DNA of 64,000 nt from Candidatus Bathyarchaeota archaeon (GCA_963733055.1 CAVTBR010000002.1:471071-535070), one strand, 5' to 3'. Shown: positions 13,790-61,826, counted from the stretch's first letter. The notes: generated from the letters alone by a model not told the origin. Made by a program: numbers and translations.

Positions 13790-13900
13790 GCCGGGGTGGC
13801 TCAGCCTGGTAGAGCGCCAGTCAGGCTTACGGGACGAAACTCATAATCTGGAAAGCGATGGGCCCAGAAGCCGCGGGCTCGAATCCCGCCCCCGGCACCA
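13790..13900 (+). tRNA. tRNA-Met(CAU), elongator type, with two non-canonical introns (anticodon stem 18 nt, variable region 16 nt)
   Basis: Acceptor GCCGGGG/CCCCGGC-A-CCA. The spliced anticodon arm is CCAGA-CTCATAA-TCTGG and the mature length is 77 nt. Confidence 0.9.
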
Positions 13901-46624: not shown

Positions 46625-46814
46625 TCATGACAAAGTAGAGTAAAACCTGACACAGAAACATGTGCAAAGTTATTTTGAAGAATGCCACGTAGCCGCAGAT
46701 TAGCCAGCTAGCTTGGCGAATGACTGGGTAAGCTAGATCGTGATCTTCGCTTAATTCGAAGTCGACCCACACACAAAGGCAAGACTCAAAAGCCATACGG
46801 ACTAAGGGGGCTGC

Positions 46815-47258
46815 ATGGTCTCTGAAGTTCTTAATCTCGAATTGAGTATTCGGAAGTCTCCCGAAGCGGTTCGTGCTTGGTGGACTGATCTTCCGGAAGA
46901 CTATCAAGCGAAGGACCCGCGGGAACAACCATACCGAATCGTCACTACTCGTCGCTTACCGAACGGGCGCGAGCTTCGTACTTATTGGCGAATGCCGGAC
47001 GGCTCAGCATTTGATTTTCAGGAGATACTTTTCTTGAAATCGGATGGAAGTTGGACCTTCGAAATCCCAAGCGGCATGGGTTTCCACATTCTAGACGAAT
47101 TCCGAACCGAATCCGTTCCAACCGGCACCAAACTCATTATTCGAAGTACTCTGACTCCGCTGGACCCTTCCGCTGCCAGGCGTATTTCTGCACAGAAGGA
47201 GCTTATGTCTCAGGGTTGGAAGGGCGCAGCAGAAATTTGCGAACATGATGCAACATAA
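46815..47258 (+). CDS. SRPBCC-like hypothetical protein
   Basis: IRKSPEAVRAWWTD start and C-terminal helix QGW. Confidence 0.65.
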   Translation: MVSEVLNLELSIRKSPEAVRAWWTDLPEDYQAKDPREQPYRIVTTRRLPNGRELRTYWRMPDGSAFDFQEILFLKSDGSWTFEIPSGMGFHILDEFRTESVPTGTKLIIRSTLTPLDPSAARRISAQKELMSQGWKGAAEICEHDAT

Positions 47259-47338
47259 GTTACGCGATCGGGGACATGCCGACTAGTACGACATGTACGT
47301 CCCATTCAACTTAGATCGAAGCAACCGCGCTGATATGC

Positions 47339-48070
47339 TTGCCAAAGCCTTCGGGATCAGAGGCTGTTGAAGTAAGAAAGCTCGATCTACCTATTCTTTC
47401 CGAGATTTTCGGCAGCATCCCTTACGGAAGAGTGATACTTGCTTTGTACGATCCTGATAGCCAGTACAGCTCATTGATGATCAACATTGCAGCAGGACAT
47501 TTGAAAAGTGGTGGGGACCTACTCTACTTGCACTCATCTAGGCCCACGGTCGAAATCAGGAAGGAATTCAACGATCTTGGAGTGAACATCGCGGAATACG
47601 AGGCGAGAGACAATGCAGTTCTCTTTGACGTTTATTCCGGGCTAATGGGTGTGAAGTCATCTGAGAAATATCAATACACAACTTCGAACCTCAACGAACG
47701 ATCCATTACCATAGGTCAGTCGGCACCCCAATGGCCCGCAGGAACGTTGGTGTTTGTAGAATCCTTCTCGAGCTTGGCGGTTGATCAGGATAAGGTATTT
47801 GCGAAATTCTCGAGAAAGGTCATGGGAGTATGGAGGGCTCAGGGAACCGTCATGATCCTTGGTCTGGCAGTTGACATACACACGCCCGAATTTTATCAGG
47901 AAATGAAGCTGGCGTCAGATGGAGTAATCGAAATCAAACTGAAGGAACACCGCGTAGAGGTCATCAACACAATCAGGGCAAGATCAATGAAGGGCCAGAG
48001 CTCTGACACGAGATGGAGACAGATTCTTTTCGACAGTAGAATGAAAGCTTCACTCCGATTGCTCGAATAA
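47339..48070 (+). CDS. KaiC/RAD55-like protein lacking a Walker A motif
   Basis: GSIPYGRVILALYDPDSQY replaces GxxGxGKT; ASDGVIEI and RARSMKG C-terminal motifs. Confidence 0.75.
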   Translation: MPKPSGSEAVEVRKLDLPILSEIFGSIPYGRVILALYDPDSQYSSLMINIAAGHLKSGGDLLYLHSSRPTVEIRKEFNDLGVNIAEYEARDNAVLFDVYSGLMGVKSSEKYQYTTSNLNERSITIGQSAPQWPAGTLVFVESFSSLAVDQDKVFAKFSRKVMGVWRAQGTVMILGLAVDIHTPEFYQEMKLASDGVIEIKLKEHRVEVINTIRARSMKGQSSDTRWRQILFDSRMKASLRLLE

Positions 48071-48090
48071 CAACTATACGCGTTTCCTTT

Positions 48091-48120
48091 GTGTGTGGTC
48101 TAATGGTGCGCACCTACACC
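48091..48120 (-). repeat. Family-1 palindromic element, copy 1
   Basis: Reverse complement GGTGTAGGTGCGCACCATTAGACCACACAC, 20 nt after the stop at 48070. Confidence 0.8.
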
Positions 48121-48205
48121 AAAACGGACCGGTACAACGCCGGGTTACTGTGTTGATCGGAACGACGACTGGCCAAGCGGAGTTGCAGTTAAAGCCGGAA
48201 GCGTT

Positions 48206-49606
48206 TCACCGTGTAGTTGGAGGTGGGGGTTTCCTTCTCGAAATAGCTATTGCTATTCCGCCCAGTACTACTGCTATGGCTATCACCGCATACCCGAGGT
48301 ACATCGCGTTACTCGTCTGATTCTGAAGGCCGGCGAGTGAGTTCTGAAGAGCGCTTTGGGAAGCTTGCACAGTACTCATCTGGTCGCTCAATGTACTTAC
48401 TGCGGTCTGGTTCTCGACTGCACCCAGCAACTGGACCTTCACGGATGAGCTTGCGGTGTTTCCCATGATCGTGGTCTGTGAAGCGTTGAACACTCCGATC
48501 CCGTAGACCTCATTCTGGATAGTATTTCCAATTACGAGAGTACCCGTCACTGGATCGTTGGTGGGTGATAGCACGGCTATTGCTGTCGGAGCCGGCTGGG
48601 GAAAGTCGTAGTCCGGTCCGTTGCCGCTCAAGACGTTTCCTATGACACCGTTACCCGCCACCGTTGTATTCGGTGAGCTGCCATCGATGTCGACGCCTTC
48701 GGTTGCGCTGTTTACGATCGTGTTATCCTTCACGGTGTTATTGACTGCGGAAGTCCCTGGTATGGGCGTCGCCACGACAATTCCTTCGGCGTTGCCTGAG
48801 ACAAGGTTGTTAAGGACCACATTGTCCAGCACTCCCTGACCCGGATCATAGGCAGAAACCACAATTCCACAGCCCCCGACGTTGTTAATGACCGTGTTGT
48901 CGGCGACCAAGTTGTTGGTGGATGGGTTGTTTGTGCCTGGCGTAGCAGGATGGAACACGTTCTCGACTACTCCAGGATCGAGTGGTCCGTCATCGCTAAT
49001 TCCGATTCCACCATCACCGACGCTTCCGACAACAGTGTTGCCTACAACGGTTGACTGTGAAGATCCGACGAGTTCTATTGCCTTGTCCTCAAGGATACAC
49101 GGCGGAGTAGTGGCGAGGATGTTGATAGGGCAAACCTGACTCGCGTTGAGAACGTTGTTGAGCACGTAGTCAAACTGAACCGTCACGTGCGAGGCGTCCT
49201 GGACATATACCCCTTCGCCGTTGGCGTTTTCAACTGTGAGACCTTCGATCGTCGTTCCATTCGCATTTGCACCTGTGATCGCGATGCCATTGAGCGCACC
49301 GGCAGCATCTATGATTGTATTTGACGGTTGTGAGCTCTCTGATTCCAGAGTCAGCGGTTTGGTAATGGTCACAGATTCGGTATACGTCCCAGGAGCGATC
49401 ATGACGATTGCGCCAACTGGTGCCACGCTTACTGCGTGAGTAATGTTCGCGTAGGGATTTGTTGACGAACCGTTACCTTTGGCGTCGCTACCGGTGGGAC
49501 TTACGTAAACGATCGTCGGCTGCTGACCGTGAACCGCGATAACGGGAAGGGTTGATAGGAAACAGATAAGAAGAATTGTCAATTCAAACTTCTTGAAGAT
49601 CGACAT
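48206..49606 (-). CDS. Membrane-anchored right-handed parallel beta-helix protein (pectin lyase-like/NosD repeats)
   Basis: YVSPTGSD..GSSTNPY, PGTYTE, repeated NTVxNN/GIxV units, C-terminal TM. Confidence 0.85.
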   Translation of the reverse strand: MSIFKKFELTILLICFLSTLPVIAVHGQQPTIVYVSPTGSDAKGNGSSTNPYANITHAVSVAPVGAIVMIAPGTYTESVTITKPLTLESESSQPSNTIIDAAGALNGIAITGANANGTTIEGLTVENANGEGVYVQDASHVTVQFDYVLNNVLNASQVCPINILATTPPCILEDKAIELVGSSQSTVVGNTVVGSVGDGGIGISDDGPLDPGVVENVFHPATPGTNNPSTNNLVADNTVINNVGGCGIVVSAYDPGQGVLDNVVLNNLVSGNAEGIVVATPIPGTSAVNNTVKDNTIVNSATEGVDIDGSSPNTTVAGNGVIGNVLSGNGPDYDFPQPAPTAIAVLSPTNDPVTGTLVIGNTIQNEVYGIGVFNASQTTIMGNTASSSVKVQLLGAVENQTAVSTLSDQMSTVQASQSALQNSLAGLQNQTSNAMYLGYAVIAIAVVLGGIAIAISRRKPPPPTTR

Positions 49607-49736
49607 CTTTCCACCGGTACGTTCTTGCCGCACTCGTCTAAGCCTCTCTCTCGATTGGTCGGTAGCGTCCCCTAAAATAACTTACTTGCTTACACTGAGA
49701 GATACTTCGCTTTCTTGTTGCGACCTTGCATACCCA

Positions 49737-49812
49737 GCCGTCCGTTTTAATGTGTGTGTGTGCGCACCAAGTGATACCACACACACTTTTTGACGACGAT
49801 GGACGACGGTTC
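49737..49812 (+). repeat. Family-1 palindromic element, copy 2 (near full length)
   Basis: AGCCGTCCGTTTTAATGTGTGTGTGTGCGCACCAAGTGATACCACACACACTTTTTGACGACGATGGACGACGGTTC. Confidence 0.85.
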
Positions 49813-49857
49813 AAATTTCAGTTGCCCGCATACCTAGCACCATACACAATGATCTGC

Positions 49858-50991
49858 CTACAATCCAAACCAGCGTCTACGGCGGCTGGATCCGAAAGCC
49901 TGTTTATCATTGGCAAGGGCGGCGGAAGGTGCCTCGAAACTCCCAGTGGGAGCAGGTCCTGAAAGGAAGTCCACGTCCACGCGCGCGACTTTACCCTCTC
50001 CAAACTCGACGTAGCAGGAACCTGCCCCGGAGTAAGGCGGGGGTTGTTTGTCGCCCTTTACATTTGCAATCAGAGCGGCTGCTACCACGCGCGCCGCTCC
50101 CTCGGAGAATACGCCCGCCTTTGGCGTTTCAACGCTCGTCACGTCACCTATTGCATACACGCCTGGAAAACGGGTTTTGAGTGTCTTGGGATCCACCGGA
50201 ATCCAGCCGTCCTCGGTCATGCCGCTTTCCACAACCACATCTGGGACGCGGTGTTTGGGGATGCCAAGGAACAAGTCGTAGGGCATCTCGCTGGCATCGT
50301 CGAGTATGACAACCTTGCGCCCCGGGTCCAGAGCGCGCACAAACCGGTTGGGGATGAAGGTGATGCCCCGCTCGGCGAAAGCGCTGAGTAACGCCCGGGA
50401 AGATGCGGGCGAGGGAGGAATTGGAGCACCGAACGGCATAACAAGACTGATCTCGCAGGCGCCGCGCACTCCTTGCGCGCTAAGGAACTCGTGCAGCAAT
50501 AACGCCGCTTCGCTTGGCGCGGGCGGGCACTTGAAGGGCAGTGAGGTTACCCCAACGATGGCGCGACCTTTGGTGAAGGTGGGGAGGACTTCCCGCAGGC
50601 GTTCAGCCCCGGCCATTGAGTAGAATTCGTTGCCGCCTTCCCTCAGCCCCGGTGTGGCCCCCAGATCATAATCGGCACCCAGCGCCACCACGAGCACATC
50701 GGCTTCGTGAGTCCCGCGGTCGGTCGTAACGACTCGCCTCTTGGGGTCTATAGCGGTGATCGTTTCCCGGCAGAAACGCACGCCTGGCCTGTCGATCGCA
50801 CTGTAAGCGAAACGCACGGCGTCTGATGTCTTCCGTCCGAACATCACGTCAAGCTTTGAAAAGCCGAAGTAAAAGGAATCGTTCTTGTCGATCAGTGTAA
50901 GATCGAGGCGGTCGGGAAGCGCGTCTGACAACATCGCGCTCACTTCCAATCCGCCGAAACCCGCACCCAGGACAACCACGTGTAGTTTCAT
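49858..50991 (-). CDS. Sulfide:quinone oxidoreductase / flavocytochrome c-like FAD oxidoreductase
   Basis: VLGAGFGG, VALGA, FKCPPAPSE, VYAIGD, PKAG and CYVEFG motifs. Confidence 0.88.
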   Translation of the reverse strand: MKLHVVVLGAGFGGLEVSAMLSDALPDRLDLTLIDKNDSFYFGFSKLDVMFGRKTSDAVRFAYSAIDRPGVRFCRETITAIDPKRRVVTTDRGTHEADVLVVALGADYDLGATPGLREGGNEFYSMAGAERLREVLPTFTKGRAIVGVTSLPFKCPPAPSEAALLLHEFLSAQGVRGACEISLVMPFGAPIPPSPASSRALLSAFAERGITFIPNRFVRALDPGRKVVILDDASEMPYDLFLGIPKHRVPDVVVESGMTEDGWIPVDPKTLKTRFPGVYAIGDVTSVETPKAGVFSEGAARVVAAALIANVKGDKQPPPYSGAGSCYVEFGEGKVARVDVDFLSGPAPTGSFEAPSAALANDKQAFGSSRRRRWFGL

Positions 50992-51054
50992 GTTTCTCGG
51001 ATTTGCGAGGTAGGTAGTTATCACTTGCCATTCCGTAGGGTATGGTTGGCATTT

Positions 51055-51110
51055 GTGTGTGTGCGCTCACCAGTGATACCACACACAGACCAAACGATGA
51101 CGGACGACTG
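51055..51110 (+). repeat. Family-1 element, copy 3
   Basis: GTGTGTGTGCGCTCACCAGTGATACCACACACAGACCAAACGATGACGGACGACTG. Confidence 0.8.
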
Positions 51111-51226
51111 GGGAGAAGTCGTTACTTTAACAGCGGTAAGTTGTGGATAAGGGCCGGTTTCCGAAAGCGTCGGAAGTTGCTTATTCGAGTGTGAGTGCTA
51201 TGTTGTGTCTGAGAGATGATTGATGT

Positions 51227-51343
51227 ATGGCAAAGCAGAGTAGGGCATCTAAGAAAGCGTGGACGGCTGCTAGAGATAAGAGGGAGTCGAAAGCACGCGA
51301 GAAGAAGAAAGATCGAAAAGCCGCCCTTTCCACGTATCACTAG
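51227..51343 (+). CDS. Basic microprotein (38 aa, missing from the ORF track)
   Basis: MAKQSRASKKAWTAARDKRESKAREKKKDRKAALSTYH; lies alone between repeat copies 3 and 4. Confidence 0.55.
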   Translation: MAKQSRASKKAWTAARDKRESKAREKKKDRKAALSTYH

Positions 51344-51401
51344 GAACGCTTCACGTCACGATATATTGTCACGAAGGGGCTAAGATGGACGCAGAAGAAG
51401 C

Positions 51402-51451
51402 TGTATCTGTGCGCACCAGCGTACCCTCACACACTAATTGACCGACGACCG
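51402..51451 (+). repeat. Family-1 element, copy 4
   Basis: TGTATCTGTGCGCACCAGCGTACCCTCACACACTAATTGACCGACGACCG. Confidence 0.75.
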
Positions 51452-51487
51452 AAATCCACAACTGGCAGTTCACCCAACACAATTTTT

Positions 51488-52197
51488 GTGAACGCTGTGC
51501 CACGGATTCCGTTAATCGAGGACCTACTCAGCGGACCGGTCCCTTCTGGAACAAGTTTCTTGGTTGAATTTGACCCTTCTTCACAATGGTACAATGCATG
51601 CACGTCTATAGCCGCAGGTTGGCTCAACACCGGGGGAAGAGTGACCTATATTCTATCATCAAGAGCCCCCGACGATATACGCGCACAACTCACCAAACTC
51701 AGCATTGACGTGCCACGGTCTGAGGCAAGTGACAAACTTCGAATATGGGACGCATACTCGAGGATCCTCGGCCTCCAGTCACGCAAAAGTACAAAGTTGA
51801 ATCGATGAACGTCGCGGACTTACGCATCTGGGCTGCGAAGGAGTTCATGCATCAACCCGCCGCTCCCGACCTCATGTTCATCACGGAGAACTCTTCCGTC
51901 GCGGCGAGGTACAACGACGAGAAGAGCTGGGTTGAGTACACACTAACCAGAGTACTTCCCGCAGCCTCGATGACCAAGGCCATGAACATTCGAGGCGTAT
52001 CGCTCGGCGTTCACAGCGATTCAGCCTACAAACAACTCGAAGCGGCTGCTCAGGGGGTCATCGACCTTAAGGTCGAAGAAGTTGAAGGCGAGGCTAAGAA
52101 TCGTATTCGCATCCGAAAAATGCTCAATGCCCCGTTTGACGCGCACTGGCATCAGTTAAAAGTTAGCGAGAATTTCGAAGTCACGCTTGAGAAGTAA
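51488..52197 (+). pseudogene. KaiC/RAD55-like paralog, frameshifted near 51785 (pseudogene or sequencing error)
   Basis: The two ORFs join into a collinear homolog of 53995-54708 (LVEFDPSSQWYNA ... ARYNDEKSWVE ... NFEVTLEK). One base is missing at CGC-AA-AAG. Confidence 0.8.
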
Positions 52198-52210
52198 CTA
52201 TTCACTGGTC

Positions 52211-52260
52211 CGCCGTCGTTTTCGTGTGTGCGCGCACCAGCCTACCCACACACACTTTTG
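52211..52260 (+). repeat. Family-1 element, copy 5
   Basis: CGCCGTCGTTTTCGTGTGTGCGCGCACCAGCCTACCCACACACACTTTTG. Confidence 0.85.
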
Positions 52261-52386
52261 CTCCGTTTGAACGAAGCAGGTTATTTGACTTGGACCGAAA
52301 GGCGAACTTGAGAATTGTCTAGGTGTATCGCACAAGAACCTTAAACCCTACGATCACAGAATGGCGTTGGTTCAGGGAGTCGCGAC

Positions 52387-53223
52387 TTGAGGCATGCCAT
52401 GATCGGGGTGCTGTTGACGATCGCCCTTTTCTTGTTTTTGATTAATGCTCGGCCTGCATATGCCTTTGCGACCCTAGTTCAACAAAGCAACTTCGGTTGT
52501 GCTTGCAATGGTTCTGGTATTGCGCATGTTTTTCTCTTTCTCTCCGGCACTGTGACGGCCGGGGACGTGTTGGTTGTCGGGTTGGCATTCTCTCATCTAG
52601 GGGGTACTTTCCTCATTGCGTGTGGGTCTCCTATAATGACGGTTGTCTGTGTGGCGGATGCCCATGGCTCACAGTTCACGCAAGCCGCAGCGACGGGTGC
52701 GACGGGTAGTTCAGCTGTGCTCGTTTACACGGCTACCATTCCGCCGTGCGGAAGTTGCATTCCCTCAGATGAGTTTAGTGTAACATTCTTGCGCGGCACG
52801 TTTATGGATGTGTACGCGTATGAAGTGTCTGGCGTAAGCACCGTCGGCCTCGCGACCGGCACGGGTTCAGGGTTGGGAACGATGGTTTCCACATCACCGG
52901 TCAGCTTCACAGCGGGTGCCTTTCTTCTCGGATTCAATATCCATGATTCCGGTGCGTCGGTTACCGCTGGGTCGGGGTTTACACTCAACAATGACGTCAT
53001 CGGGATCTCAACCGCCGAGTATGCTGACCCGGTCTCTTCGCCAACAACCTTCCCAGCCATCTTAAGCGGCAACGTGAACTGGGCTGAGGCAGGAATAGCC
53101 TTGAATCCGACACTTGTTCCCCCAATATCTGAATATCCTTTGGGGCTACCCTTACTCGCTCTCCTAGCTACAGTCGCCTACGGTGTAGTCAGACGCAGAA
53201 CTAGAAACCCCGCAAGTGCATAA
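52387..53223 (+). CDS. Secreted surface protein with ISEYP sorting signal (paralog of 14358-15149)
   Basis: TLVQQ, AYEVSGV, AGSGFTL and SPTTFPA segments; PPISEYPLG-TM-RRRTR. Confidence 0.85.
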   Translation: MRHAMIGVLLTIALFLFLINARPAYAFATLVQQSNFGCACNGSGIAHVFLFLSGTVTAGDVLVVGLAFSHLGGTFLIACGSPIMTVVCVADAHGSQFTQAAATGATGSSAVLVYTATIPPCGSCIPSDEFSVTFLRGTFMDVYAYEVSGVSTVGLATGTGSGLGTMVSTSPVSFTAGAFLLGFNIHDSGASVTAGSGFTLNNDVIGISTAEYADPVSSPTTFPAILSGNVNWAEAGIALNPTLVPPISEYPLGLPLLALLATVAYGVVRRRTRNPASA

Positions 53224-53241
53224 CGACCAGATTTGCGTTCC

Positions 53242-53292
53242 AACCGTCGTCGTTCCTTTTGCGTGTGTGCGCACCACCAGACCCACACACAC
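53242..53292 (+). repeat. Family-1 element, copy 6
   Basis: AACCGTCGTCGTTCCTTTTGCGTGTGTGCGCACCACCAGACCCACACACAC. Confidence 0.85.
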
Positions 53293-53387
53293 CAAACGAA
53301 CACCCCGCTAAACCCGGGGGGAGGGACCTGTCGAGGGACCCTCCTTCGACGGACCTCCTGATTTTAGGTTACTTCGCTCTTATACTA

Positions 53388-53894
53388 TCATCCCTTGTAC
53401 GCCTTTCTCAGCGCCGCGATGTCGATCTTTTTCATTTTGAGCATTGCGTCCATAACTCTTCCCGCTTTCTTGGCGTCCTTGTCGCCCAATAATTCGCCTA
53501 AGATGGTGGGATTGATCTGCCACGACAATCCGTATTTATCTTTCAACCAGCCGCACGGCCCTTCCTCTCCACCTTCAGAGAGCCTCTTCCAGAAACGGTC
53601 GACTTCCTCTTGGGTCTTACAGTCCACGGAGAACGATACGGCCTCGGTGAATTTGAACTGCGGCCCACCATTGAGTGCGATGAACCTTTGTCCCTCCAAC
53701 TGGAACTCCACAATCATAACTGACCCAGGCTCTCGCCCATGAACTTCATTTCCCGCCTCGGTGTAGCGGGAAACATTCAGAATTTTTGAATTCTTGAAAA
53801 TGGAAACGTAAAATTTCGCTGCTTCTTCGGCCTGGCCATCGAACCACAGAAATGGAGTTATTTTTTGTATCAAGTTCATTACTTCTGCAGACAC
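53388..53894 (-). CDS. VOC/PhnB-like protein (3-demethylubiquinone-9 3-methyltransferase family)
   Basis: [15 protein letters not shown] and [14 protein letters not shown] motifs. Confidence 0.93.
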
Positions 53895-53931
53895 GCAGGA
53901 TCCTAACTCTTAGGAGGAAATATTCAACTTT

Positions 53932-53990
53932 GTCGTCGTCCGTCCGTCGTCGATAAAAGTGTGTGTGGGTCTAGTGGTACGCACACAAAC
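53932..53990 (-). repeat. Family-1 element, copy 7
   Basis: Reverse complement GTTTGTGTGCGTACCACTAGACCCACACACACTTTTATCGACGACGGACGGACGACGAC, 4 nt from the stop of 53995-54708. Confidence 0.85.
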
Positions 53991-53994
53991 AAAA

Positions 53995-54708
53995 CTACTT
54001 TTCCAGCGTGACTTCGAACTTAGGACCTATCTTGAGTTTGTGCCAGCGTCCATCGAAGCCTACGTTCCGCATGCTTCTTAATCGAATTAGATTCTGGGGT
54101 GGGTCGGCGCTCTCATCGAGTCTGAAATCGATTATGCCATCGGCCGCTGTCTCCAACTGTTTGTACGCCCATTCACTATGAACGCCTTTCGCAATTCCAC
54201 GGATCCCGATCAGTTTCTGCAAAGACCCGGCTGGAAGTCCTCGCGTAAGTAGAAACTCGACCCACGCCTTCTCGTCATTGAATCTTGCAATCGTCGAAGC
54301 GTTATCGGCTATCCGCAGAAGATCGGGCGTCACTGGTCCACGCATTTGGTCTCTTGCGAAAGAGATGCTTAGATCTGCAACTTTCAGCGAATCGCCCGCA
54401 TACTTCTCTTTAGACTTCTGCCCAAGCGTGGCAGTGAACACATCGTAAACTCTGAGCATATCCTCCTTCTCAAGATTATCCGTGTTGGCCCCAAGGCGCT
54501 TAAATTGTAGCCGAACATTCTCGGGAGATTGAGCGTTCACAAAATACCAGACTCTTCCGCCGCTTCTCAACCATCCTTCCGCTATGCCGAGGGAAGCGTT
54601 GTACCATTGTGAAGCTGGATCAAATTCGACCAGAATGTTTGACCCAGGCGAGATTTGATTGACGGTCAGATCGTCAATCAAAGGAATCATTGGCACAATA
54701 GGACACAA
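53995..54708 (-). CDS. KaiC/RAD55-like protein lacking a Walker A motif
   Basis: GSNILVEFDPASQWY, AADGIIDF and IRLRSMRN motifs. Confidence 0.78.
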   Translation of the reverse strand: MCPIVPMIPLIDDLTVNQISPGSNILVEFDPASQWYNASLGIAEGWLRSGGRVWYFVNAQSPENVRLQFKRLGANTDNLEKEDMLRVYDVFTATLGQKSKEKYAGDSLKVADLSISFARDQMRGPVTPDLLRIADNASTIARFNDEKAWVEFLLTRGLPAGSLQKLIGIRGIAKGVHSEWAYKQLETAADGIIDFRLDESADPPQNLIRLRSMRNVGFDGRWHKLKIGPKFEVTLEK

Positions 54709-54744
54709 ATTCTATTGACCCTGTTATCAGGGTTTAGGTTTTTC

Positions 54745-54774
54745 GTGTGTGTGTGGGTCTAATGGTGCGAGCAC
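54745..54774 (-). repeat. Family-1 element, copy 8
   Basis: Reverse complement GTGCTCGCACCATTAGACCCACACACACAC. Confidence 0.8.
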
Positions 54775-54782
54775 CCAAATCT

Positions 54783-54841
54783 GAACCGGCCGTCGTTCGT
54801 AAGGCGTGTGCGTGTGCACCAGCTATGTCACACACACGAAA
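54783..54841 (+). repeat. Family-1 element, copy 9 (inverted relative to copy 8)
   Basis: GAACCGGCCGTCGTTCGTAAGGCGTGTGCGTGTGCACCAGCTATGTCACACACACGAAA. Confidence 0.8.
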
Positions 54842-54968
54842 ATGTTGTTCAAATTCTTGACTTCGAACCTCCGAGAAGACGTTCGATAGATAACGTAACG
54901 TCTACGGCTGCTACCGTTGTTTGCAGGCGATGTAACAAATCGTCTGCCGTTATGTGTCGTTTGGTGGT

Positions 54969-55865
54969 CTAGTTTGACAGCGCTCGACTCAGCGTTCTGC
55001 GTCTAATCAGACCGTAAGCGAGTACTATGAGGATTGCGAGGATTGGTAATCCAAGCGGGTACTCTGGGATTGGTGGAGCAGTCGTAGTTGTTGTGGTTGC
55101 GGCTGGTGTCAGTGGAACCCCAATCAAGGACCAATAGGGATCAGTGAAGGGAGGGTTAGGAGTAGGAAAATCCCAGGTCATGGTTACGGGGGGGTCGGGT
55201 TGATCGCTCTCAGCCCCAACAATATTGATGCCGAAACCACCACTAGTATATGTCGAGCTGTAACGTTGCGTCTGTTCAGCATTCGCTGTATTATAACCTA
55301 CGTAGGATACCATGCATAATATGTCGACTACGAGGTCTCCGGAGCTGCTGGCCACAGACACGGAACCAGGACTACTCCTCGTGCACCCCTCATCGTTTGA
55401 GGCGACGGTTCCTGTACTTGCGACGTTGAAGTATGATACCGACCCCCCAACCAATAAGTCCGGACCAGCGTTGAACGTGATTGTGACGGTTGCGGTTCCA
55501 GTTGGTGGGTTGAGGAGAGACCACAACTGAACAACGGCTCCGCCACCGAAGCCGACCTGTTCACAGTCCGGGTGACTGCCTAGAAGTGAGAGTGACGTGG
55601 TGCCGAACTTGACGCTATCGCTAGTACTACCTAGACTTGGAACATAGGAGACTCCGACTATGAGGATCCCGTTACCGCCCGAACCAACAGTATGCGACCA
55701 AGACAGCGAGCCACACTGAGCGGGGAGAAGCCCGTTACAGTTGTTGCTGGCGAATGAATCGAAAACTATCGACGTACTCGCGTGAACAGGCAGAGGTTCC
55801 AAGAGCAACAGAAACATGAAAAGGATTACTAGTAAGCAAGCCAAGCCCTGCCGTTTCAGTCTCAC
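54969..55865 (-). CDS. Secreted surface protein with IPEYP sorting signal
   Basis: Signal peptide ending LEPLPVHA; C-terminus TTTTTTAPPIPEYPLG-TM-RRR. Confidence 0.85.
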   Translation of the reverse strand: MRLKRQGLACLLVILFMFLLLLEPLPVHASTSIVFDSFASNNCNGLLPAQCGSLSWSHTVGSGGNGILIVGVSYVPSLGSTSDSVKFGTTSLSLLGSHPDCEQVGFGGGAVVQLWSLLNPPTGTATVTITFNAGPDLLVGGSVSYFNVASTGTVASNDEGCTRSSPGSVSVASSSGDLVVDILCMVSYVGYNTANAEQTQRYSSTYTSGGFGINIVGAESDQPDPPVTMTWDFPTPNPPFTDPYWSLIGVPLTPAATTTTTTAPPIPEYPLGLPILAILIVLAYGLIRRRTLSRALSN

Positions 55866-56158
55866 GAAATCGGCACCCTAAGCTAGCGTTAGCTTCCCGA
55901 GTCTAATAGGACTTATTTCCGGTCATAATCCGGGACACGAGCAGGAACGTCAGTGTTCCCCTTGCGAGGTGAACCTGACTGGATTGGACTTCTAACCGGG
56001 TTAGGAATCCTCGTGGTTTTGCGACTAGTTCCGCATTTGACTTGAGCGCTGCAATACCAGACGGTTTGTTACAACCAACGAAAGGACCTCAGCAGACGAG
56101 GACGTTACGTTACCTTCGATGGATAACTCTTTTACAGCTTCACAGCTTTCGACACTTG

Positions 56159-56464
56159 ATGAGATTGAACGAATCATCGGCTCGAGAGAAAGCTCTGCAA
56201 GCCTTCATTAAATATCATGAGAGGCAAGAGTTTGATAGTGTCCGCATTTTGAGTGCGGATAAAGGAAAATCGTCGGATCACGCGCATACCGGAAACAAGT
56301 TCGACGAGTTCTCTCCTAACGATTTCATAAGTGATCCAACGCCGGAGGGATGGATGTGTACTCTTTCCCATCGACATGAGCCAAGTGTGACTCCTGATGG
56401 GTCGAGGAAATATCGGCTTGAGTTAAAGGACGACTCAAGCATCATAAGAGAAAGCTGCAACTAA
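56159..56464 (+). CDS. Hypothetical protein
   Basis: ATG 56159 chosen because the upstream part of the tracked ORF covers a family-2 motif; no recognisable domain. Confidence 0.5.
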   Translation: MRLNESSAREKALQAFIKYHERQEFDSVRILSADKGKSSDHAHTGNKFDEFSPNDFISDPTPEGWMCTLSHRHEPSVTPDGSRKYRLELKDDSSIIRESCN

Positions 56465-56477
56465 CAACTAACGAATG

Positions 56478-56520
56478 GAACAGTCGTAGTGTGTGTACCA
56501 GGGTACCGACACACAAGAAA
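56478..56520 (+). repeat. Family-1 element, copy 10 (degenerate)
   Basis: GAACAGTCGTAGTGTGTGTACCAGGGTACCGACACACAAGAAA, just after the stop at 56464. Confidence 0.65.
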
Positions 56521-56598
56521 ATCAGTTCCGCCCGCACCATTGGCCCCTTCGCCAAACAACCTTTTTTGTATGCGACAGGGACGTTCTGCCGGGTATGC

Positions 56599-57687
56599 AT
56601 GCACCAAGTCTTTAGTGACATATGGAAGGCATACCCCAAGAACATGCTTGCAAACCGCACTTGGCACTGGTGGTGGTTGATCCACTTCTTTGAAAACCCA
56701 GACCGGCCCGAATTCCCCAAGCAACTCATGGTGCTTTGGGTCACCAGGAATTGCGGAAAGCTTCGCGTTAACGATTCATACGACTGGCAACCAAAATCGC
56801 TGATGGAAACGAACGAAAATCATTCCGCTTTCGACTCAATAGTTGCTTCCTGGTACTATGACGGAAACAAAATGCATGAACCCTTCATTCTCGATCACGG
56901 AAAGACTGAAACCTCATGGGAAGACAACTTTGGACGTATCAGTATGGAAAGCGAAAAAGGCGTCTATTCCTTCAGCGGAAGCCCTGCAGATCTCCAACTG
57001 AACATGCGTAGCGAGATGGTTGGAATCGAACTATCGATGCACCCGTGGAAAGATGCGATGGCGGAGCTGTTGCCGACAGGAAAGAAGCTCATCGGAAACA
57101 TGGGGTATTCCATGCTAAAATACAGAGCGCTCTTGTCATCTGGAAAAATCCGAATAGGAACCACTGAGACTCCAGTAGGGGGAAGGTGTTATTTCCAGAA
57201 AGTGCGAATGTCGATAACCCCCTGCTGGTACTGGGCCACAGTACAATGGGACAACGGCGCTTACCTGCAATACTTCCTACCGCACGTCGGAATGCCAATG
57301 CTCAGACGCTCGGCATCACACGAGAGCCTAATGGACTGGGGTGAAACAATGTTTTCAAAAACCCTCAGGTTCTATGACCCTGAAGCGGAGAAGGAATATT
57401 CCATGAAGAAAATTAGAATAAGCAAACGATACGAGAATGGCCTACCGGTATTCAAGGTGAAAGCACGCTCCGATGAAGGCGACCTCAGCATAGAGCTCGC
57501 AACCTACTCAAGATGTTGCTGGAACATTTCACAACCACTAATAGGACCAATCTGGCACGGAATATTCTACAACGAATATCCAGCAAGAGTCACGAATTTC
57601 AAATTCAAAAGCGATACCCGCATAATAAACACCGACGACTTTGGCAGGAGCTATTGCAACTGCGAGCACACATGGGGAACAATCTGA
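56599..57687 (+). CDS. Hypothetical aromatic-rich beta-barrel protein (AttH/tocopherol cyclase-like)
   Basis: TWHWWWLIHFF, GRCYFQKV, PCWYW and CNCEHTWG segments; start placed after repeat copy 10. Confidence 0.65.
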   Translation: MHQVFSDIWKAYPKNMLANRTWHWWWLIHFFENPDRPEFPKQLMVLWVTRNCGKLRVNDSYDWQPKSLMETNENHSAFDSIVASWYYDGNKMHEPFILDHGKTETSWEDNFGRISMESEKGVYSFSGSPADLQLNMRSEMVGIELSMHPWKDAMAELLPTGKKLIGNMGYSMLKYRALLSSGKIRIGTTETPVGGRCYFQKVRMSITPCWYWATVQWDNGAYLQYFLPHVGMPMLRRSASHESLMDWGETMFSKTLRFYDPEAEKEYSMKKIRISKRYENGLPVFKVKARSDEGDLSIELATYSRCCWNISQPLIGPIWHGIFYNEYPARVTNFKFKSDTRIINTDDFGRSYCNCEHTWGTI

Positions 57688-57720
57688 ACCGTCGTTCGTC
57701 GTTTGAAAAGTGTGTGTGCA
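57686..57720. repeat. Family-1 element, copy 11 (half site overlapping the TGA stop)
   Basis: TGAACCGTCGTTCGTCGTTTGAAAAGTGTGTGTGCA. Confidence 0.75.
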
Positions 57721-57730
57721 TTCGGCAGGA

Positions 57731-57949
57731 TTACTTGCGTTTCCTTGACTTCGGAATCTTTCCTTTCAACCGTACTCCCGTGCCATGAAGCTCCATGTAA
57801 CGGCAACTGACACATTCATAGACGTGGATAGGAACGTAGACAGTGGTAAAGAGCGGACCTTGCATACTTACTGTCCGCAATCCGTGAAAGTACCTTAGCT
57901 CTTACATTCTTCCTCTACACTTTGGACAAGTAAGTCTAGGCATCGGCAT
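57731..57949 (-). pseudogene. Small Zn-ribbon protein with an in-frame TAA at codon 16
   Basis: MPMPRLTCPKCRGRM*ELRYFHGLRTVSMQGPLFTTVYVPIHVYECVSCRYMELHG..KSRKRK; the CxxC pair spans the stop. Confidence 0.65.
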
Positions 57950-58060
57950 TCACTCGCTTACAACTTTCGAGTTGTACATACAGCGTTTACGTCGTCAAAG
58001 AGGCGGGGTTCTTCCAGCGACTAGTCAGATCTGTTCTAGAGAGTGGGCAGTGGTTCTGTC

Positions 58061-58423
58061 CTATAGTAGAGCGGTCCACTTCTCTGGTCTCTCTATGACC
58101 TTGACTTCGCTGACCGTTCGCATCATCCTTGACTTTTGAGGCCTTGTCTGGTCGATCATGTCCCAAGTCTGGCGAGTCCATTGCGCTAAAACCTCGCAGT
58201 CACGCATCTTGTCTAAGGCGGCCCAGTCGGGCGCAGCCCACCAATCCTCAGCATCATAGTCGCCAAAGCTTTGAATCGTGGTGTAGGTGTTGAGGTACTT
58301 GATGCCAGTTTGCTTCTCTATTTGAGAAGCCAATAGTTTTGCCTCGTCTGACTTCAACCATTTCACGTACTCTGCAACTTTCCCTGGTTTTCCATAATAG
58401 CTCCATACCCAATATATCGACAA
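58061..58423 (-). CDS. Hypothetical protein (dimeric alpha-beta barrel/NIPSNAP-like)
   Basis: KPGKVAEYVKW and WWAAPDWAALD segments. Confidence 0.65.
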   Translation of the reverse strand: MSIYWVWSYYGKPGKVAEYVKWLKSDEAKLLASQIEKQTGIKYLNTYTTIQSFGDYDAEDWWAAPDWAALDKMRDCEVLAQWTRQTWDMIDQTRPQKSRMMRTVSEVKVIERPEKWTALL

Positions 58424-58576
58424 ATTTCTCTCTCCGATCTCCTGTAACCTGTGTATCTACTCCGGTTTAGAGTCTTGTTTTCGTGAGGTTTAGGTGGTTC
58501 CTGGCCTAGCGGGTGATAGGTTACGGTCACGATCGCTTATTGAATGAGTGGCGCTGAATTACTGGTAGTGTGGCCT

Positions 58577-58687
58577 GTGAGTGCACAAAGACAAGCCAAA
58601 GTCTACAGACGCAAAAGCTACCGAAGACGAAAGAAAACTCGGTCTTTAGAAGAAGAAGAGGAAAAGCAGCGTAAAGAGAGAGGATAA
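58577..58687 (+). CDS. Basic microprotein (36 aa, missing from the ORF track)
   Basis: GTG start; MSAQRQAKVYRRKSYRRRKKTRSLEEEEEKQRKERG. Confidence 0.45.
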   Translation: MSAQRQAKVYRRKSYRRRKKTRSLEEEEEKQRKERG

Positions 58688-58724
58688 AGAGTAAAGACTA
58701 GAGTCGAATGAATCGCGTCCGAAA

Positions 58725-58862
58725 CTATGACCTATGTGACTGAATAGGCTCAATCTTGACTTTCCGTTTTCGCTCCCTTTCGGCCATGCGTGTCCGCTTA
58801 TCTCTTCGTGCATGTCTTCTTCGTGAGCGCTTTCTTCTTTGTCGACCACTACGTCTGGGCAA
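58725..58862 (-). CDS. Arg-rich protamine-like microprotein (45 aa, missing from the ORF track)
   Basis: TTG start after a GAGGAG SD; MPRRSGRQRRKRSRRRHARRDKRTRMAERERKRKVKIEPIQSHRS. Confidence 0.6.
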   Translation of the reverse strand: MPRRSGRQRRKRSRRRHARRDKRTRMAERERKRKVKIEPIQSHRS

Positions 58863-58981
58863 TTGCGCTCCTCTGATGTTTTCTCATAGAAGCGGAGGTT
58901 TAAGCACGATGGTGACCTTCGAGATATGGTAGAAGCTCGCCACTCGTCGTGCGCGGTCGTCATTTGAATCAGGCGGTTTTC

Positions 58982-59037
58982 TGTGTCTGTGCGCACCAGC
59001 AGGCCCACACACACTTTACGACGGACGACGACGGTTC
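58982..59037 (+). repeat. Family-1 element, copy 12
   Basis: TGTGTCTGTGCGCACCAGCAGGCCCACACACACTTTACGACGGACGACGACGGTTC. Confidence 0.85.
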
Positions 59038-59149
59038 GAAATACGACGCTCGCGTCCTCGACGGGAATCACGGGAAGTTAAGACCAGAAACGGAAAGACT
59101 CTCAAACTCAGCTAATAGATCGGAACGTATGTTTTGGAATGCTCGAACG

Positions 59150-59299
59150 TCAAGAAATTAGGCGTTTGAACCACTTCCTATAGTTGACGAACTCGAAGCC
59201 GCCGCCTTTCTTTCCTCGTTTTCTTCTTCTTCCTCTTCTTGCTTTGTCTCCTGTTCTTCTCGGCTTCTTCGTCTTCGTTTTCTTCTTTTTCGTGGCCAG
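59150..59299 (-). CDS. Lys/Arg-rich microprotein (49 aa, missing from the ORF track)
   Basis: CTG start after a GGGAGG SD; MATKKKKTKTKKPRRTGDKARRGRRRKRGKKGGGFEFVNYRKWFKRLIS. Confidence 0.6.
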   Translation of the reverse strand: MATKKKKTKTKKPRRTGDKARRGRRRKRGKKGGGFEFVNYRKWFKRLIS

Positions 59300-59477
59300 A
59301 AAACTCGCCTCCCGACTAGCTACTATCTTAGCGTCCGATTTCTACTTATTTGGCGTGCATTTAGAGGCCTCTTTCCATTCACCTTTAGGTTGCATGGTCA
59401 ACAAAACCAGTGGGGTTCTGAATATCCTTCCGCGCGCAGACCATGCCAGTTGGGGCAGTAGTATGCCGGCCGAATTT

Positions 59478-59535
59478 GAATCGGCGTCATTCGTCGTCTG
59501 AAGTGTGTGTGCGCACACCAATAGACCCACACACA
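59478..59535 (+). repeat. Family-1 element, copy 13
   Basis: GAATCGGCGTCATTCGTCGTCTGAAGTGTGTGTGCGCACACCAATAGACCCACACACA. Confidence 0.85.
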
Positions 59536-59742
59536 AGATGAGTGCAGTAGGCAGCTTGACAGATTTACCTAGGAAATTGATAACCCCCCACTGAGAGCAC
59601 TTCAAGACCAAATGGACACGATTGACAAGCAACTCGCTTCTCTTGGTTACAATCACTTCCCTCAATTCGTGAATTCTGTTCGACACTCTAGATAATTGTC
59701 CCTTAGTAAGGCGGAGCCCTGCTGAGGCAATGCATCGATTTG

Positions 59743-60687
59743 TTATGTGTTCTCCTGCTGGTCATGGTAAGTACTCTGAGACCAGAGTATCCATACACCT
59801 AACCCCATGGCGAAAGCCGCTGCCAAAAGAAAAGTAGTGACAGCTTCCCGCAATAGCACAACCGAGAACACCGCTCCAATAAAGGGAGCCGATGAAAAAT
59901 ATGCCCCCGCGCGGGCGCTCCCTAAGTATCGTAAACCTAGGACCCAGAACACGTTGCTAAATCCATAACAGAATATGCCAATTATCAAGCCGGCAAAAAT
60001 CGACTGCATCGTCCAGTTACCGGGAAAAAATAACGACAACAGCAAGCTGGCAGCTCCACCTAAGAAACCTCTAATGCTTACAACCTGAAACGGGTTTCTA
60101 CGGGAAATCTTCCGCAGAAAATTGTTTTCAAATCCCCAACAGAGACATGCTACAACAACTAGGAAAGAAGCTCTGATATCCAATATCGCTCCAAAGCCGT
60201 TCCAAGTAATGAGCGCACTTCCTACAAGGATAGCAAAGGCACCGCTTGCGAACTTTCGATCGACCTGTTCGCGAAAAACAATCCACGCCACTAAAATAGT
60301 GAATACGGTTTCGAAATTCAGAAGTAACGAAGTATTCGAGGCGGGTAGGCTCTGCAGACCAATTAGGAGAAGTAATGGGGCGAGGATCCCGCCGAAGGCC
60401 ACACAGCCTAGCATCCATGGACCATCATCTCTTGTGAGGTGCCCTTCACTGGAAATCATTGTCTTAGGGGTCAATATGCCCAGGAAAGTTGCTCCGAGAC
60501 CAGAACCGAAGTACATTAACCCAGCTAATAGCGGGAATGAAATCATTCCGACCAAGGGTTTTGCTAACGGCGTACTTAGGCTGAAAAAGCCGGCAGCCAA
60601 CAGAACATACCCGACACCTTTTCGAGTCCTTACATCTTTCATCTTCGAATCCTTCGATATCTTTCCGGAAAAGATTAGACCTCTCAT
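59743..60687 (-). CDS. EamA/DMT family transporter
   Basis: About 10 TM helices in two repeats; ASNTSLLLNFETVFT and APFIGAVFSVVLLRE segments. Confidence 0.9.
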   Translation of the reverse strand: MRGLIFSGKISKDSKMKDVRTRKGVGYVLLAAGFFSLSTPLAKPLVGMISFPLLAGLMYFGSGLGATFLGILTPKTMISSEGHLTRDDGPWMLGCVAFGGILAPLLLLIGLQSLPASNTSLLLNFETVFTILVAWIVFREQVDRKFASGAFAILVGSALITWNGFGAILDIRASFLVVVACLCWGFENNFLRKISRRNPFQVVSIRGFLGGAASLLLSLFFPGNWTMQSIFAGLIIGIFCYGFSNVFWVLGLRYLGSARAGAYFSSAPFIGAVFSVVLLREAVTTFLLAAAFAMGLGVWILWSQSTYHDQQENT

Positions 60688-60758
60688 TGTTGACTAAGGT
60701 TGAAGCGTATCTCTGCGATGCATCTTGCTATGATTGATTGCTAGTATCTTTCGGAATC

Positions 60759-61371
60759 TCAGAGGATATTCTTCAGGGCCTGTATGTTGAATGTTGTATT
60801 GGCGCAACCATTCCTGATTAAGGGCACATTTTGACCTGGCAGCCCCGTCTTCTCTAACAGTCCTTCAGCCAGCTTGATCTCTGCGCCGCAAGCGACTCCC
60901 ACAAGTGCCTCATAACGGCCTTTTTGCAGAATCTGCTGGATACATGACCCACCCGGCAGAACATGAACATCGTATCCTCTCTCCTCCCCAGCCAGCGTAG
61001 CTTGGTTTACCAAGCAGTCGGGTGAACAATGAGAGCAGCGATATGATGGAATGTTCGAGTCGAAGACGGCCTTACACCGATTGTCCATATACTTCCTTGA
61101 GCAGTGAGGAAGCAGTAGCACTCGTCTGGAAGTTCTTGCGAATCTTTCCCGGTTCTCGAAATTCTTAGTCTGGATATCTATCAGGTCCTCGAGGAGCATC
61201 AGGGCTTGAGCAAAATCCAATCCTGTGATCTCCTGAACTCTGCATCGTTCAAGAAGGCGCAAAGTTGCCTCGCCAATTCTTCTGTGCAGCTGTCTCTTTT
61301 GGGCAGCCACCGCAATTCCTCTGAAGAACGATTGGGATAGCCGTCAGGTCGAACTTGAATTGGTAAGGCAT
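60759..61371 (-). CDS. DUF116 family protein, apparently frameshifted near 61333
   Basis: LLLPHC, CSHCSPDC, VLPGGS, GVAC and GCANT motifs. ATG 61371 (MPYQFKFDLTAIP) is out of frame with the body (SFFRGIAVAAQKR). Confidence 0.8.
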
Positions 61372-61439
61372 GAGTTCCGTATTACCCCCAGGAGCAATAA
61401 GATCACAGTGTGAGTCTTGGTTTTGGTATTTGACTGGAA

Positions 61440-61486
61440 GTGTGTGTCTAGAGGTGTGCGCACACACACTTTACGAAAGACGGTTC
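61440..61486 (-). repeat. Family-1 element, copy 14
   Basis: Reverse complement GAACCGTCTTTCGTAAAGTGTGTGTGCGCACACCTCTAGACACACAC. Confidence 0.85.
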
Positions 61487-61718
61487 AGACTGAAGGAGGG
61501 TACGATAATTCTGACCGCGACCAATACACGGGATGAGAATAGAATGCTTTTCTTTTATCCCTGATTGACGAGGGGAGCGAGTGACGGTTAGTGCTGAATG
61601 ATCGCCCAAAAAACATATGCAGGTTACTAGGGGCAGCAGGATTTCAGTGCAAGAACTTCGCGGGGGCTCTAACTTACCTACTTCCCCGTTGCCGCAAAGG
61701 CAATGCTTGGTTCTTTGG

Positions 61719-61757
61719 TTACTTTTTCTTCTTTGTTTTCTTCTTCGCTTTAGGCAC
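61719..61757 (-). CDS. Possible 12-aa Lys-rich peptide
   Basis: GTG start, MPKAKKKTKKKK, GTGA upstream; resembles the N-terminus of 59150-59299. Confidence 0.35.
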   Translation of the reverse strand: MPKAKKKTKKKK

Positions 61758-61826
61758 AGAAATCACGCGTAGATCTTCGCCATTACAGGTTTAACACTTC
61801 CGACCGCTACGAAGCGGCCATTTGGC

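Follow-up and report, generated by a model that had tools for sequence, protein, structure and literature searches.

We analysed a stretch of 64,000 nucleotides (nt), hereafter the window (G000:C2:471071-535070), which forms the end of contig C2 of G000, the genome of an uncultured soil Bathyarchaeia archaeon assembled in three contigs (C1-C3; 2.88 Mb, 96% complete). At 46.7-61.5 kb of the window, mostly single and unrelated accessory genes are separated by a short imperfect palindrome, of which this part holds 12 strong copies and one weak copy, besides one that is halved and a single fragment. The core of this repeat, about 32 nt long, reads GTGTGTG-CGCACCA-N5-6-CC-CACACAC, with a T/A-run before the left arm and an A/T-run after the right arm. 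Judged from alignments with related genomes (numbered in the same way), the repeat sits at the points where species differ by the gain, loss or inversion of genes, in islands by tRNA genes, and it is this position and its possible causes that are considered here.

The anatomy of the repeat was derived from the flanks of 101 copies in G000 and its relatives. The family is a mosaic, in which two modules share an asymmetric motif M, GCNCGCACCA-N5-6-CCCACACAC, also written (G/C)CNCGCACCA-N5-6-CCCACACAC. In the core module, M is preceded by GTGTGTG, an inverted copy of its own (CA)n arm; in the other module, unit B, it is preceded by CGACGACGG-TTCAAAT-5 nt-7 nt-A-CCA. The features of the array are given below, where HMM and R1 denote sites found by a profile hidden Markov model and by a covariance model, respectively, and ORF an open reading frame.

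46713..46720, no strand: left border of the G000-specific island, where homology with the two closest relatives stops
46764..46775, plus: repeat remnant GACCCACACACA; the homologous site of G018 is a full copy or unit B
46815..47258, plus: cassette gene, 147 aa, no family match
47339..48070, plus: KaiC-like paralog, Walker A not visible, 92% to G018:C2:1249261-1250049
48089..48123, minus: repeat core (HMM, R1)
48206..49633, minus: beta-helix surface protein gene
49716..49740, plus: decayed motif M (GCGACC..CCCAGCC), at a homology break
49749..49788, plus: repeat core, spacer (A)GTGATA (HMM, R1)
49806..49850, plus: decayed unit B, TTCAAAT-TTCAG-TTGCCCGC-A-TAC...CATACACA, ending about 9 nt before the stop codon of the SQR-like gene
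49858..51024, minus: SQR-like flavoprotein gene, 89-91% in G004, G019 and G014
51052..51088, plus: repeat core, spacer GTGATA (HMM)
51227..51343, plus: 38-aa basic micro-ORF, in segment 51167-51350
51399..51436, plus: repeat core (HMM, R1)
51488..52197, plus: KaiC-like paralog in two overlapping ORFs (51488-51808 and 51745-52197), probably frameshifted
52220..52257, plus: repeat core (HMM, R1)
52387..53223, plus: surface protein gene with C-terminal membrane anchor
53257..53293, plus: repeat core (HMM, R1)
53388..53894, minus: VOC/PhnB-like gene (PF06983)
53957..53994, minus: repeat core (HMM, R1)
53995..54708, minus: KaiC-like paralog
54746..54780, minus: unit B copy, GGTTCAGAT-TTGGG-TGCTCGC-A-CCA-TTAGA-CCCACACAC
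54802..54839, plus: repeat core (HMM)
54969..55865, minus: surface protein gene
56477..56526, plus: degenerate repeat (HMM, R1)
56491..57687, plus: cassette gene, 398 aa, no family match, 70-82% in many genomes of the genus
57686..57720, plus: half repeat, outer arm and (GT)n arm only, overlapping a TGA stop
58061..58423, minus: cassette gene, 120 aa, no family match
58979..59017, plus: repeat core (HMM, R1)
59501..59537, plus: repeat core (HMM, R1)
59743..60687, minus: EamA transporter gene
60759..61310, minus: DUF116 gene, 88-92% in 8 genomes of the genus
61439..61471, minus: repeat core (HMM, R1)
61827..63689, minus: CDC48-type AAA ATPase paralog in the island, 93-94% to the copies of G018 and G015

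A preliminary description of this DNA had reported 14 copies and a fragment, and the motif is found at all 15 of these positions, 12 of them full cores; the copy at 56478 is degenerate, that at 57686 consists of the left arm only (outer part and (GT)n), and 46764 is a 12-nt remnant, the homolog of which in a relative is a full copy. The palindrome with an asymmetric core was likewise well described, whereas the proposed spacer, N4-ACC, is better written as N5-6 followed by CC. Also confirmed are the two orientations (9 repeats on the plus strand and 4 on the minus strand), the lack of copies in the first 46 kb (R1 gives zero matches at E<=1 in window 1-48078), the overlap of one copy with a stop codon, namely of the half repeat 57686-57720 with a TGA, and the gene content: Pfam supports the SQR-like, VOC, beta-helix, surface protein and KaiC-like genes and adds EamA and DUF116, the surface proteins being without family. 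A profile HMM built from the 12 window cores gave 66 matches at E<=10 throughout the genome and 32 at E<0.01, 12 of the latter within the window, where an extra match at 56489-56516 has E 0.72; R1 recovered its 12 training sites together with 56477-56526, which was not used for training (E 8e-4). Moreover, the window has 19 (GT)/(CA) runs with 4 units or more, 18 of which fall inside 46768-61468. With up to 2 mismatches allowed, the arm 12-mer was counted 12 times where 4.5 are expected, a count of 12 being reached in 0 of 100 shuffles.

Two arrays, C2:519-533 kb in the window and C1:519-538 kb, contain 20 of the 32 genome copies in about 33 kb of the 2.88 Mb, and the remaining copies are single or paired. 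At a coding density of 85%, 28 of 32 genome copies lie entirely outside crude ORF calls. Repeat-bearing gaps are convergent in 10 cases, co-directional in 18 and divergent in 4, and in 28 of 32 at least one gene 3' end adjoins the repeat, with the stop usually 1-60 nt away; T-runs and A-runs border many cores. Among the KaiC-like paralogs of G000, 11 of 25 loci have a repeat within 100 nt. Such a placement would suit a cis-regulatory signal for accessory genes, that is, a bidirectional terminator, an mRNA-stability hairpin or the operator of a regulon. However, the orientation of the repeat relative to the gene is mixed in co-directional gaps (9 antisense, 6 sense), solo cores fold like shuffled sequence with no covariation of the arms and no Rfam match, and the tRNA-like module and the breakpoints described below would be left unexplained. 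We consider this explanation very improbable, and a regulatory side role at 3' ends possible alongside the function as a junction favoured below. A resemblance to replication-origin boxes (ORB) was dropped, as 13 copies over every gap of 14 kb do not fit.

The KaiC-domain family itself comprises proteins of about 240 aa, with weak matches to PF06745/TIGR03877 and MEDS; a Walker A motif was not visible in the two members read. A general link of these genes to the repeat was not retained, since the protein query had no match in G002, G014, G017 (47-72 repeats), G034 and G036, in a search whose filter may miss genes.

In the alignment, the conserved part of the repeat is its centre, and the outer arms vary in sequence and spacing; the likeness to the AAC...GTT boundaries of integron attC sites that was noticed earlier is thus superficial. 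Solo cores form weak hairpins (z -1.5 to +1.4 against shuffled sequence). Core 54802-54839 folds with unit B 54746-54780 into a 126-nt palindrome (-23 kcal/mol, z -3.3), and a single complete B(-)-core-B(+) composite of 149 nt reaches -46 kcal/mol (z -8.3); no further complete composite was found in all G000 and relatives' sequence searched. Covariation of the arms was not detected (81.8% of cells paired, 82.4% in shuffles), and at the Rfam gathering threshold no family matched the repeat, the sole match in the window being one tRNA. The weak folds, the missing covariation and the lack of an Rfam family together indicate that it is the sequence that is conserved and not an RNA fold.

What unit B does resemble is the end of a tRNA gene, as its parts follow the order T-loop, 3' strand of the T-stem, 3' acceptor strand, discriminator and CCA. 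The tRNA genes of G000 encode CCA. With genuine tRNA genes included, the T-loop heptamer stands exactly 12 nt ahead of N-CCA and a (CA)n arm at 8 places in G000 and at a further 38 in 351 kb of relatives' loci, compared with 0-1 instances at spacings 8-11, 13 and 14. The right half of M directly follows two real tRNA genes of G000 with the acceptor CGGCCGC-A-CCA, tRNA-Gly at C3:367674 and tRNA-Arg-TCT at C1:343231-343392; the former is also trailed by a decayed second copy of its own 3' end. The M half after tRNA-Gly is present in G000, G013, G016 and G021 only. The DNA 3' of this tRNA-Gly(TCC) gene (G000 C3:367674-367769 and orthologs, L166-L186) differs in nearly all 17 loci of the genus examined. 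Since the sequence after tRNA-Gly is variable and few genomes have the M half, the latter is an insertion at an integration hot spot and not a part of the gene; that the (CA)n trailer might form part of tRNA-Gly itself was rejected, as most relatives are without it.

These likenesses bring in a second explanation, a dedicated site-specific cassette system of the integron or shufflon kind, in which an unrecognised recombinase would read the tRNA-3'-mimicking M, insert cassettes of one gene, in circular form, at M or at the CCA ends of tRNA-Gly/Arg genes, and invert or excise them between copies. It would be an archaeal system unrelated to integrons, whose site imitates the tRNA-Gly/Arg T-loop-acceptor-CCA end fused to a (CA)n arm and where either such a recombinase or a re-used host enzyme that binds tRNA ends inserts, excises and flips single genes, as it would at genuine tRNA 3' ends. 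In its favour are that M is asymmetric and, in non-coding DNA, nearly identical from species to species and between families, that its geometry is exactly that of a tRNA 3' end, and that the M right half comes straight after a real tRNA CCA in the four genomes just named and not in most relatives. An identical spacer is found in 6-7 of about 39 pairs of neighbouring repeats, where about 1.8 such pairs would be expected, and the rare spacer GTGATA stands on both sides of the SQR-like gene (49749, 51052). A role of spacer identity as the overlap region of a site-specific reaction was nevertheless rejected, because only exact matches are enriched and the mean is not raised. On the whole we hold this second explanation to be possible and rather doubtful, for reasons given with the enzyme searches below.

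The array belongs to DNA in which G000 departs from its relatives. Over window 26-44.5 kb, synteny holds at nucleotide identities of 66-74% for G018, G015, G011, G004, G014 and G003, at 78-83% for G013 and at 83-88% for G019, and from about 46.7 kb onward no synteny with relatives was found. In G019 and G013, the equivalent of window 46712 is fused directly to the equivalent of G000 C1:1552245, the CCA end of a tRNA gene (...GGTTCAAATCCCGCCCGGTCCACCA). These junction or "empty-site" loci of the two relatives (15 kb and 18.5 kb, 34 kb) have no repeat, nor does the syntenic core DNA in 46 kb of the window. By this comparison, a G000-specific island of at least 37.8 kb (loci L158 and L008) lies at a tRNA 3' end, made up of window 46.7 kb to the end of C2 and C1:1552246 to the end of C1, the two contigs being presumably joined; as it spans two contig ends, a part may be unassembled. 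Its C1 part (C1:1552246-1572808) encodes the genome's only DDE_Tnp_1 transposase, a restriction-modification pair of the MvaI/BcnI type and DruA, in addition to a HerA-like ATPase, an M78 peptidase, a Cas4-like nuclease, an SSB-like protein and a TFB paralog, and the island looks like one of defence and mobile genetic elements. Direct repeats do not bound it at both ends; its distal border carries only a truncated, inverted copy. A similar arrangement occurs at C2:201 kb, where a KaiC-like gene, a repeat and tRNA-Ser stand together: homology with G019 and G013 begins at the tRNA 3' end, G015 and G004 share the arrangement of gene and repeat, and the place is, to judge from these alignments, a junction of variable and conserved DNA.

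Evidence for the movement of cassettes comes from genome comparisons, for which only metagenome-assembled genomes were used, their contamination being estimated at 5-10%. Array genes have copies of 88-96% identity at unrelated places in species whose syntenic core is 66-88% identical. The beta-helix cassette (window 48106-49722) matches G013:C1:106457-108062 at 90% from one repeat to the next, the surface protein cassette (52225-53202) matches G013:C1:332894-333887 at 93%, and the VOC cassette (53284-53982) matches G013:C1:124691-125389 at 96%, again between repeats and in inverted orientation. In G011, genes homologous to members of the two G000 arrays adjoin each other. The 120-aa gene is multi-copy in the genus, at 87-95% nucleotide identity, with varied repeats 50-110 nt from most copies; G017, G011, G006, G003 and G019 have at least 2 copies each. 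Nucleotide alignments end in or at a repeat in 12 of 22 cases, and unique window homology in 9 of 16; for ends that are intergenic the count is 9 of 11, where 22.6% of intergenic bases lie within 10 nt of a repeat (P 0.004 for the enrichment). Copies are clustered, gene order is not conserved across relatives and breakpoints fall at the repeat, the reverse of the outcomes that the preliminary description had set against its own proposal.

The strongest test was offered by the second array (L002, C1:528-546 kb) and its ortholog in the closest relative, G019:C10. The flanks and four cassettes are colinear, and the arrays share six colinear blocks of 85-97% identity with unshared cassettes between them; in one genome or in both, each internal block boundary has a repeat no more than about 15 nt away. 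Between the genes for AhpC and a TMEM175-like protein, G000 has five extra genes (3.7 kb), flanked by one repeat on each side in the same orientation and with the same spacer; in G019 the two genes are joined through a single repeat. Read from the two sequences, this 3.7-kb difference is the pattern that recombination between direct copies, or insertion of a one-copy circle, would leave, and a block between direct copies with a shared spacer, facing an empty site with a single copy, is also what the dedicated system would give. G019 in turn has an extra KaiC-like block of 1.5 kb and a different block of 3.8 kb.

Junctions within the repeat are variable as well. A given cassette end is in every case a (GT)n/(CA)n arm, and what it leads into changes from genome to genome. 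The (CA)n arm 3' of the SQR-like gene continues into unit B in G000; G004 has a core(+) there and G019 a core(-). For the (GT)n arm upstream of DUF116, eight genomes give six continuations, among them an arm without loop. At the right end of the VOC cassette and at a KaiC end, the loop has opposite orientations between genomes. Homology passes through the arm and halts at the asymmetric centre. As the arms are inverted copies of each other, a crossover in or at the arms could join partners in either orientation, which would explain the mixed orientations. The clustering of homology breaks at the border of arm and loop, and the flipping of loops, would equally speak for a dedicated recombinase, and such flip and flop orientations might reflect an intermediate stage of the cassettes that is hairpin-ended or cruciform. 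Joints from repeat to repeat were also found in contigs of four soil and peat DNA runs; their shorter side of 24-40 nt is the repeat itself and the loose ends match other repeat loci, and they were set aside as artefacts. A look-up of RNA evidence for window 47001-57000 gave no entry.

[quoted passage not shown] It would account for short, palindromic and intergenic copies with TG...CA-type ends, for their varying number (2-78 among congeners) and patchy occurrence across families, for the one full 149-nt foldback composite and for the decayed copies. Yet no aligned block showed presence or absence of the element alone, all differences being whole genes; the syntenic core has no copies, and no target duplication was found, the ends of the composite included. 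The only DDE transposase of G000 has unrelated inverted repeats, no REP-associated tyrosine transposase (RAYT) was found, and the architecture is modular with variable arms and one complete composite only. This makes such an element improbable, as it does the REP/MITE alternative named in the preliminary description, for which no RAYT, no matching insertion sequence (IS) and no element-only insertions were found.

Enzymes were sought with genome profile searches, whose first filter is lossy and may miss genes, so that negatives here mean not found and not absence. The best match to the integron integrase profile (TIGR02249) in the whole of G000 scored 37.2 bits against a cut-off of 265. Six tyrosine recombinases (PF00589) are encoded in G000, all away from the arrays, and no PF00589 match was obtained in the repeat-bearing G018, G034, G006, G007, G012 and G020, of which G018 is 98% complete and has 52 repeats. 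The Y1 HUH family (PF01797) had 0 matches in G000 and occurred in 1 of 41 genomes of the order sample; a serine resolvase occurred in 4 of 41. No TnpB was found in G000, and its single DDE_Tnp_1 IS has inverted repeats unrelated to the repeat. Nor was a recombinase found among the ORFs of six cluster loci (the window array, L001-L004 and the C1 island arm, with L005-L007, L009 and L010 outside the scan), or an integrase among the island ORFs. No co-occurrence with the repeat was seen for recombinases of the tyrosine, serine or HUH type, and the search for a tyrosine recombinase, IntI or HUH gene tied to its copies, which the preliminary description had suggested, ended without a candidate. It counts against the dedicated system that there is no IntI, that PF00589, Y1 HUH and resolvase do not track the repeat, that G000 has no TnpB match and a single DDE_Tnp_1, that the six scanned loci yielded no recombinase, that spacers differ between copies, and that repeat and gene orientations are mixed.

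We consider it probable that the repeat is a mosaic, sequence-conserved element family of one Bathyarchaeia genus, patchy in other families, which acts as the junction joining single-gene modules in tRNA-linked flexible islands. Recombination between copies, both within a genome and with incoming DNA, would excise, insert and invert cassettes; each cassette would bring along its flanking arms, and the repeats may thus serve as portable homology by which foreign cassettes are admitted to a resident array. As to the machinery, we lean slightly towards a host process, either recombination or the processing of palindromes, that works on the roughly 30 nt which the copies share, and away from a dedicated recombinase of an unrecognised family. 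General recombination is favoured because the enzyme is missing, the spacers are variable and the copies are mosaic and decaying, and a dedicated reader is argued for because the asymmetric centre is conserved, the tRNA is mimicked and M halves occur at true tRNA ends. The earlier proposal of an array for capturing or shuffling genes holds as regards the shuffling, with breakpoints of gain, loss and inversion at the repeat; a dedicated recombination site of its own is no more than possible.

Several points weigh against a repeat that joins cassettes. The searches above gave no enzyme for it, and no circular or other intermediates were seen. Purely general recombination would not obviously lead to an asymmetric centre that is strongly conserved from family to family, and direct neighbours have spacers whose mean similarity (2.12) does not exceed that expected by chance (2.08). 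A conserved repeat attracts the ends of BLAST alignments, which inflates the counts of ends at repeats, and several shared genes have 5' boundaries 10-60 nt from the gene where there is no repeat. Finally, some junctions could be assembly errors, yet the repeat, at 30 nt, is shorter than usual assembly words.

A scan of the genome and its relatives with the covariance model R1 showed the repeat to be genus-wide: there are 40 matches in G000, and of 22 further congeneric genomes 21 carry 2-78. R1 had none in the 2 other sampled genera of the same family, and in the other families of the order 4 of 16 genomes have matches, two of them carrying 23 each. In an exact-pattern scan of a species-level genome collection, the multi-copy records among the matches listed were all Bathyarchaeia/Bathyarchaeota, at least about 36 of them. 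The bacterial records among the matches listed are single matches and most likely due to chance; 7 pattern matches in viral contigs all lie in GC-rich, coding-like DNA without a (GT)n arm and were likewise put down to chance. Full-text literature searches returned no description of such a repeat in Bathyarchaeia, and Bathyarchaeia are not mentioned in the main text of either a prokaryote-wide MITE census (PMC11602168) or a paper on archaeal integrons (PMC9668308).

Known systems share some of these features. According to the latter paper, integron arrays, including clusters of attC sites lacking integrases (CALINs), likewise consist mostly of single unrelated accessory genes separated by an imperfect palindromic site, differ in cassette content among relatives and may lack a recombinase nearby, and archaeal integrons comprise IntI and attC with cassettes that are generally co-oriented (PMC9668308). 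In contrast, the repeats described here have mixed orientation, sites on both sides of a gene, a conserved centre, a module like a tRNA 3' end and no IntI. The array is not an integron, there being no IntI and genes and sites standing in mixed orientation. REP sequences and their mosaics, bacterial interspersed mosaic elements (BIMEs), are often found just after stop codons, with linker motifs in the mosaics, and are associated with RAYT transposases. They too are short extragenic palindromes that form mosaics in alternating orientation and have variable, lineage-specific copy numbers (PMC2817692). Core and unit B combine in both orientations here, as in REP/BIME mosaics. Unlike the latter, they come without a Y1 HUH (RAYT) match in 40 of 41 genomes, number only tens of copies, stand in islands and not chromosome-wide, contain a tRNA-end-like module and have an archaeal host.

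The dRS3/RS arrays and minimal mobile elements of Neisseria provide portable homology near genes for variable and surface proteins, where modules are replaced by recombination with imported DNA, an exchange that depends on natural transformation and RecA. Repeat arrays and a putative role as portable homology are similar in our case, whereas sequence and host are unrelated, and we know of nothing comparable to the Neisseria exchange in Bathyarchaeia. Integrative elements that target tRNA genes carry the integrase inside the element and end in a single pair of direct repeats. Like tRNA-targeted islands and archaeal att sites, the islands described here start exactly at the CCA end of a tRNA, and the repeats copy the segment from T-loop to CCA; by contrast, no integrase was found in or beside the arrays, and the tRNA-like copies are many, in both orientations and fused to a (CA)n arm.

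Bathyarchaeia are abundant uncultured archaea of sediments and soils, and to our knowledge their routes of gene exchange are almost unknown. The repeat supplies a sequence-defined marker of their flexible gene pool, at tens of copies per genome, and single genes appear to move between species that are only 66-88% identical in the core, with joints at a repeat that is tied to tRNA 3' ends without a recognisable integrase. Should there be a dedicated enzyme, cassette capture would have been invented a second time and independently, and such a cassette system would drive the exchange of accessory genes between Bathyarchaeia species. If there is none, the repeat would show plainly how portable short homology can organise horizontal transfer among archaea in nature. 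Either way, R1 can be used for finding cassette arrays in metagenomes.

Some further features of the window deserve mention. The segment 51167-51350, which holds the Lys/Arg-rich micro-ORF and 60 nt upstream of it, recurs at 92-94% in at least 8 genomes of the genus at unrelated places; a 72-aa ORF opposite the micro-ORF 51227-51343 looks spurious. The intron-containing tRNA lies at window 13790-13897 (Rfam, 44 bits). ARAGORN with default settings found no tRNA in the window, and, with introns allowed, proposed giant introns that were judged spurious. Both large arrays of G000 lie a few kb from a gene for a TrpB-like PALP protein (window 43184-44518; L002:13156-14559), the last syntenic gene on that side, which may be due to chance or to paralogous surroundings. 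A segment of about 210 nt (61601-61814), immediately downstream of the CDC48 paralog, is found at 75-87% identity in many genomes of the genus, often in several copies; it has no convincing ORF in any frame and could be another repeat or a small RNA. The CDC48 paralog itself, at 93-94% to the copies of G018 and G015 compared with about 70% for the core DNA of these two and 76-79% for the other paralog, looks like a recently exchanged extra copy of a gene of the housekeeping type.

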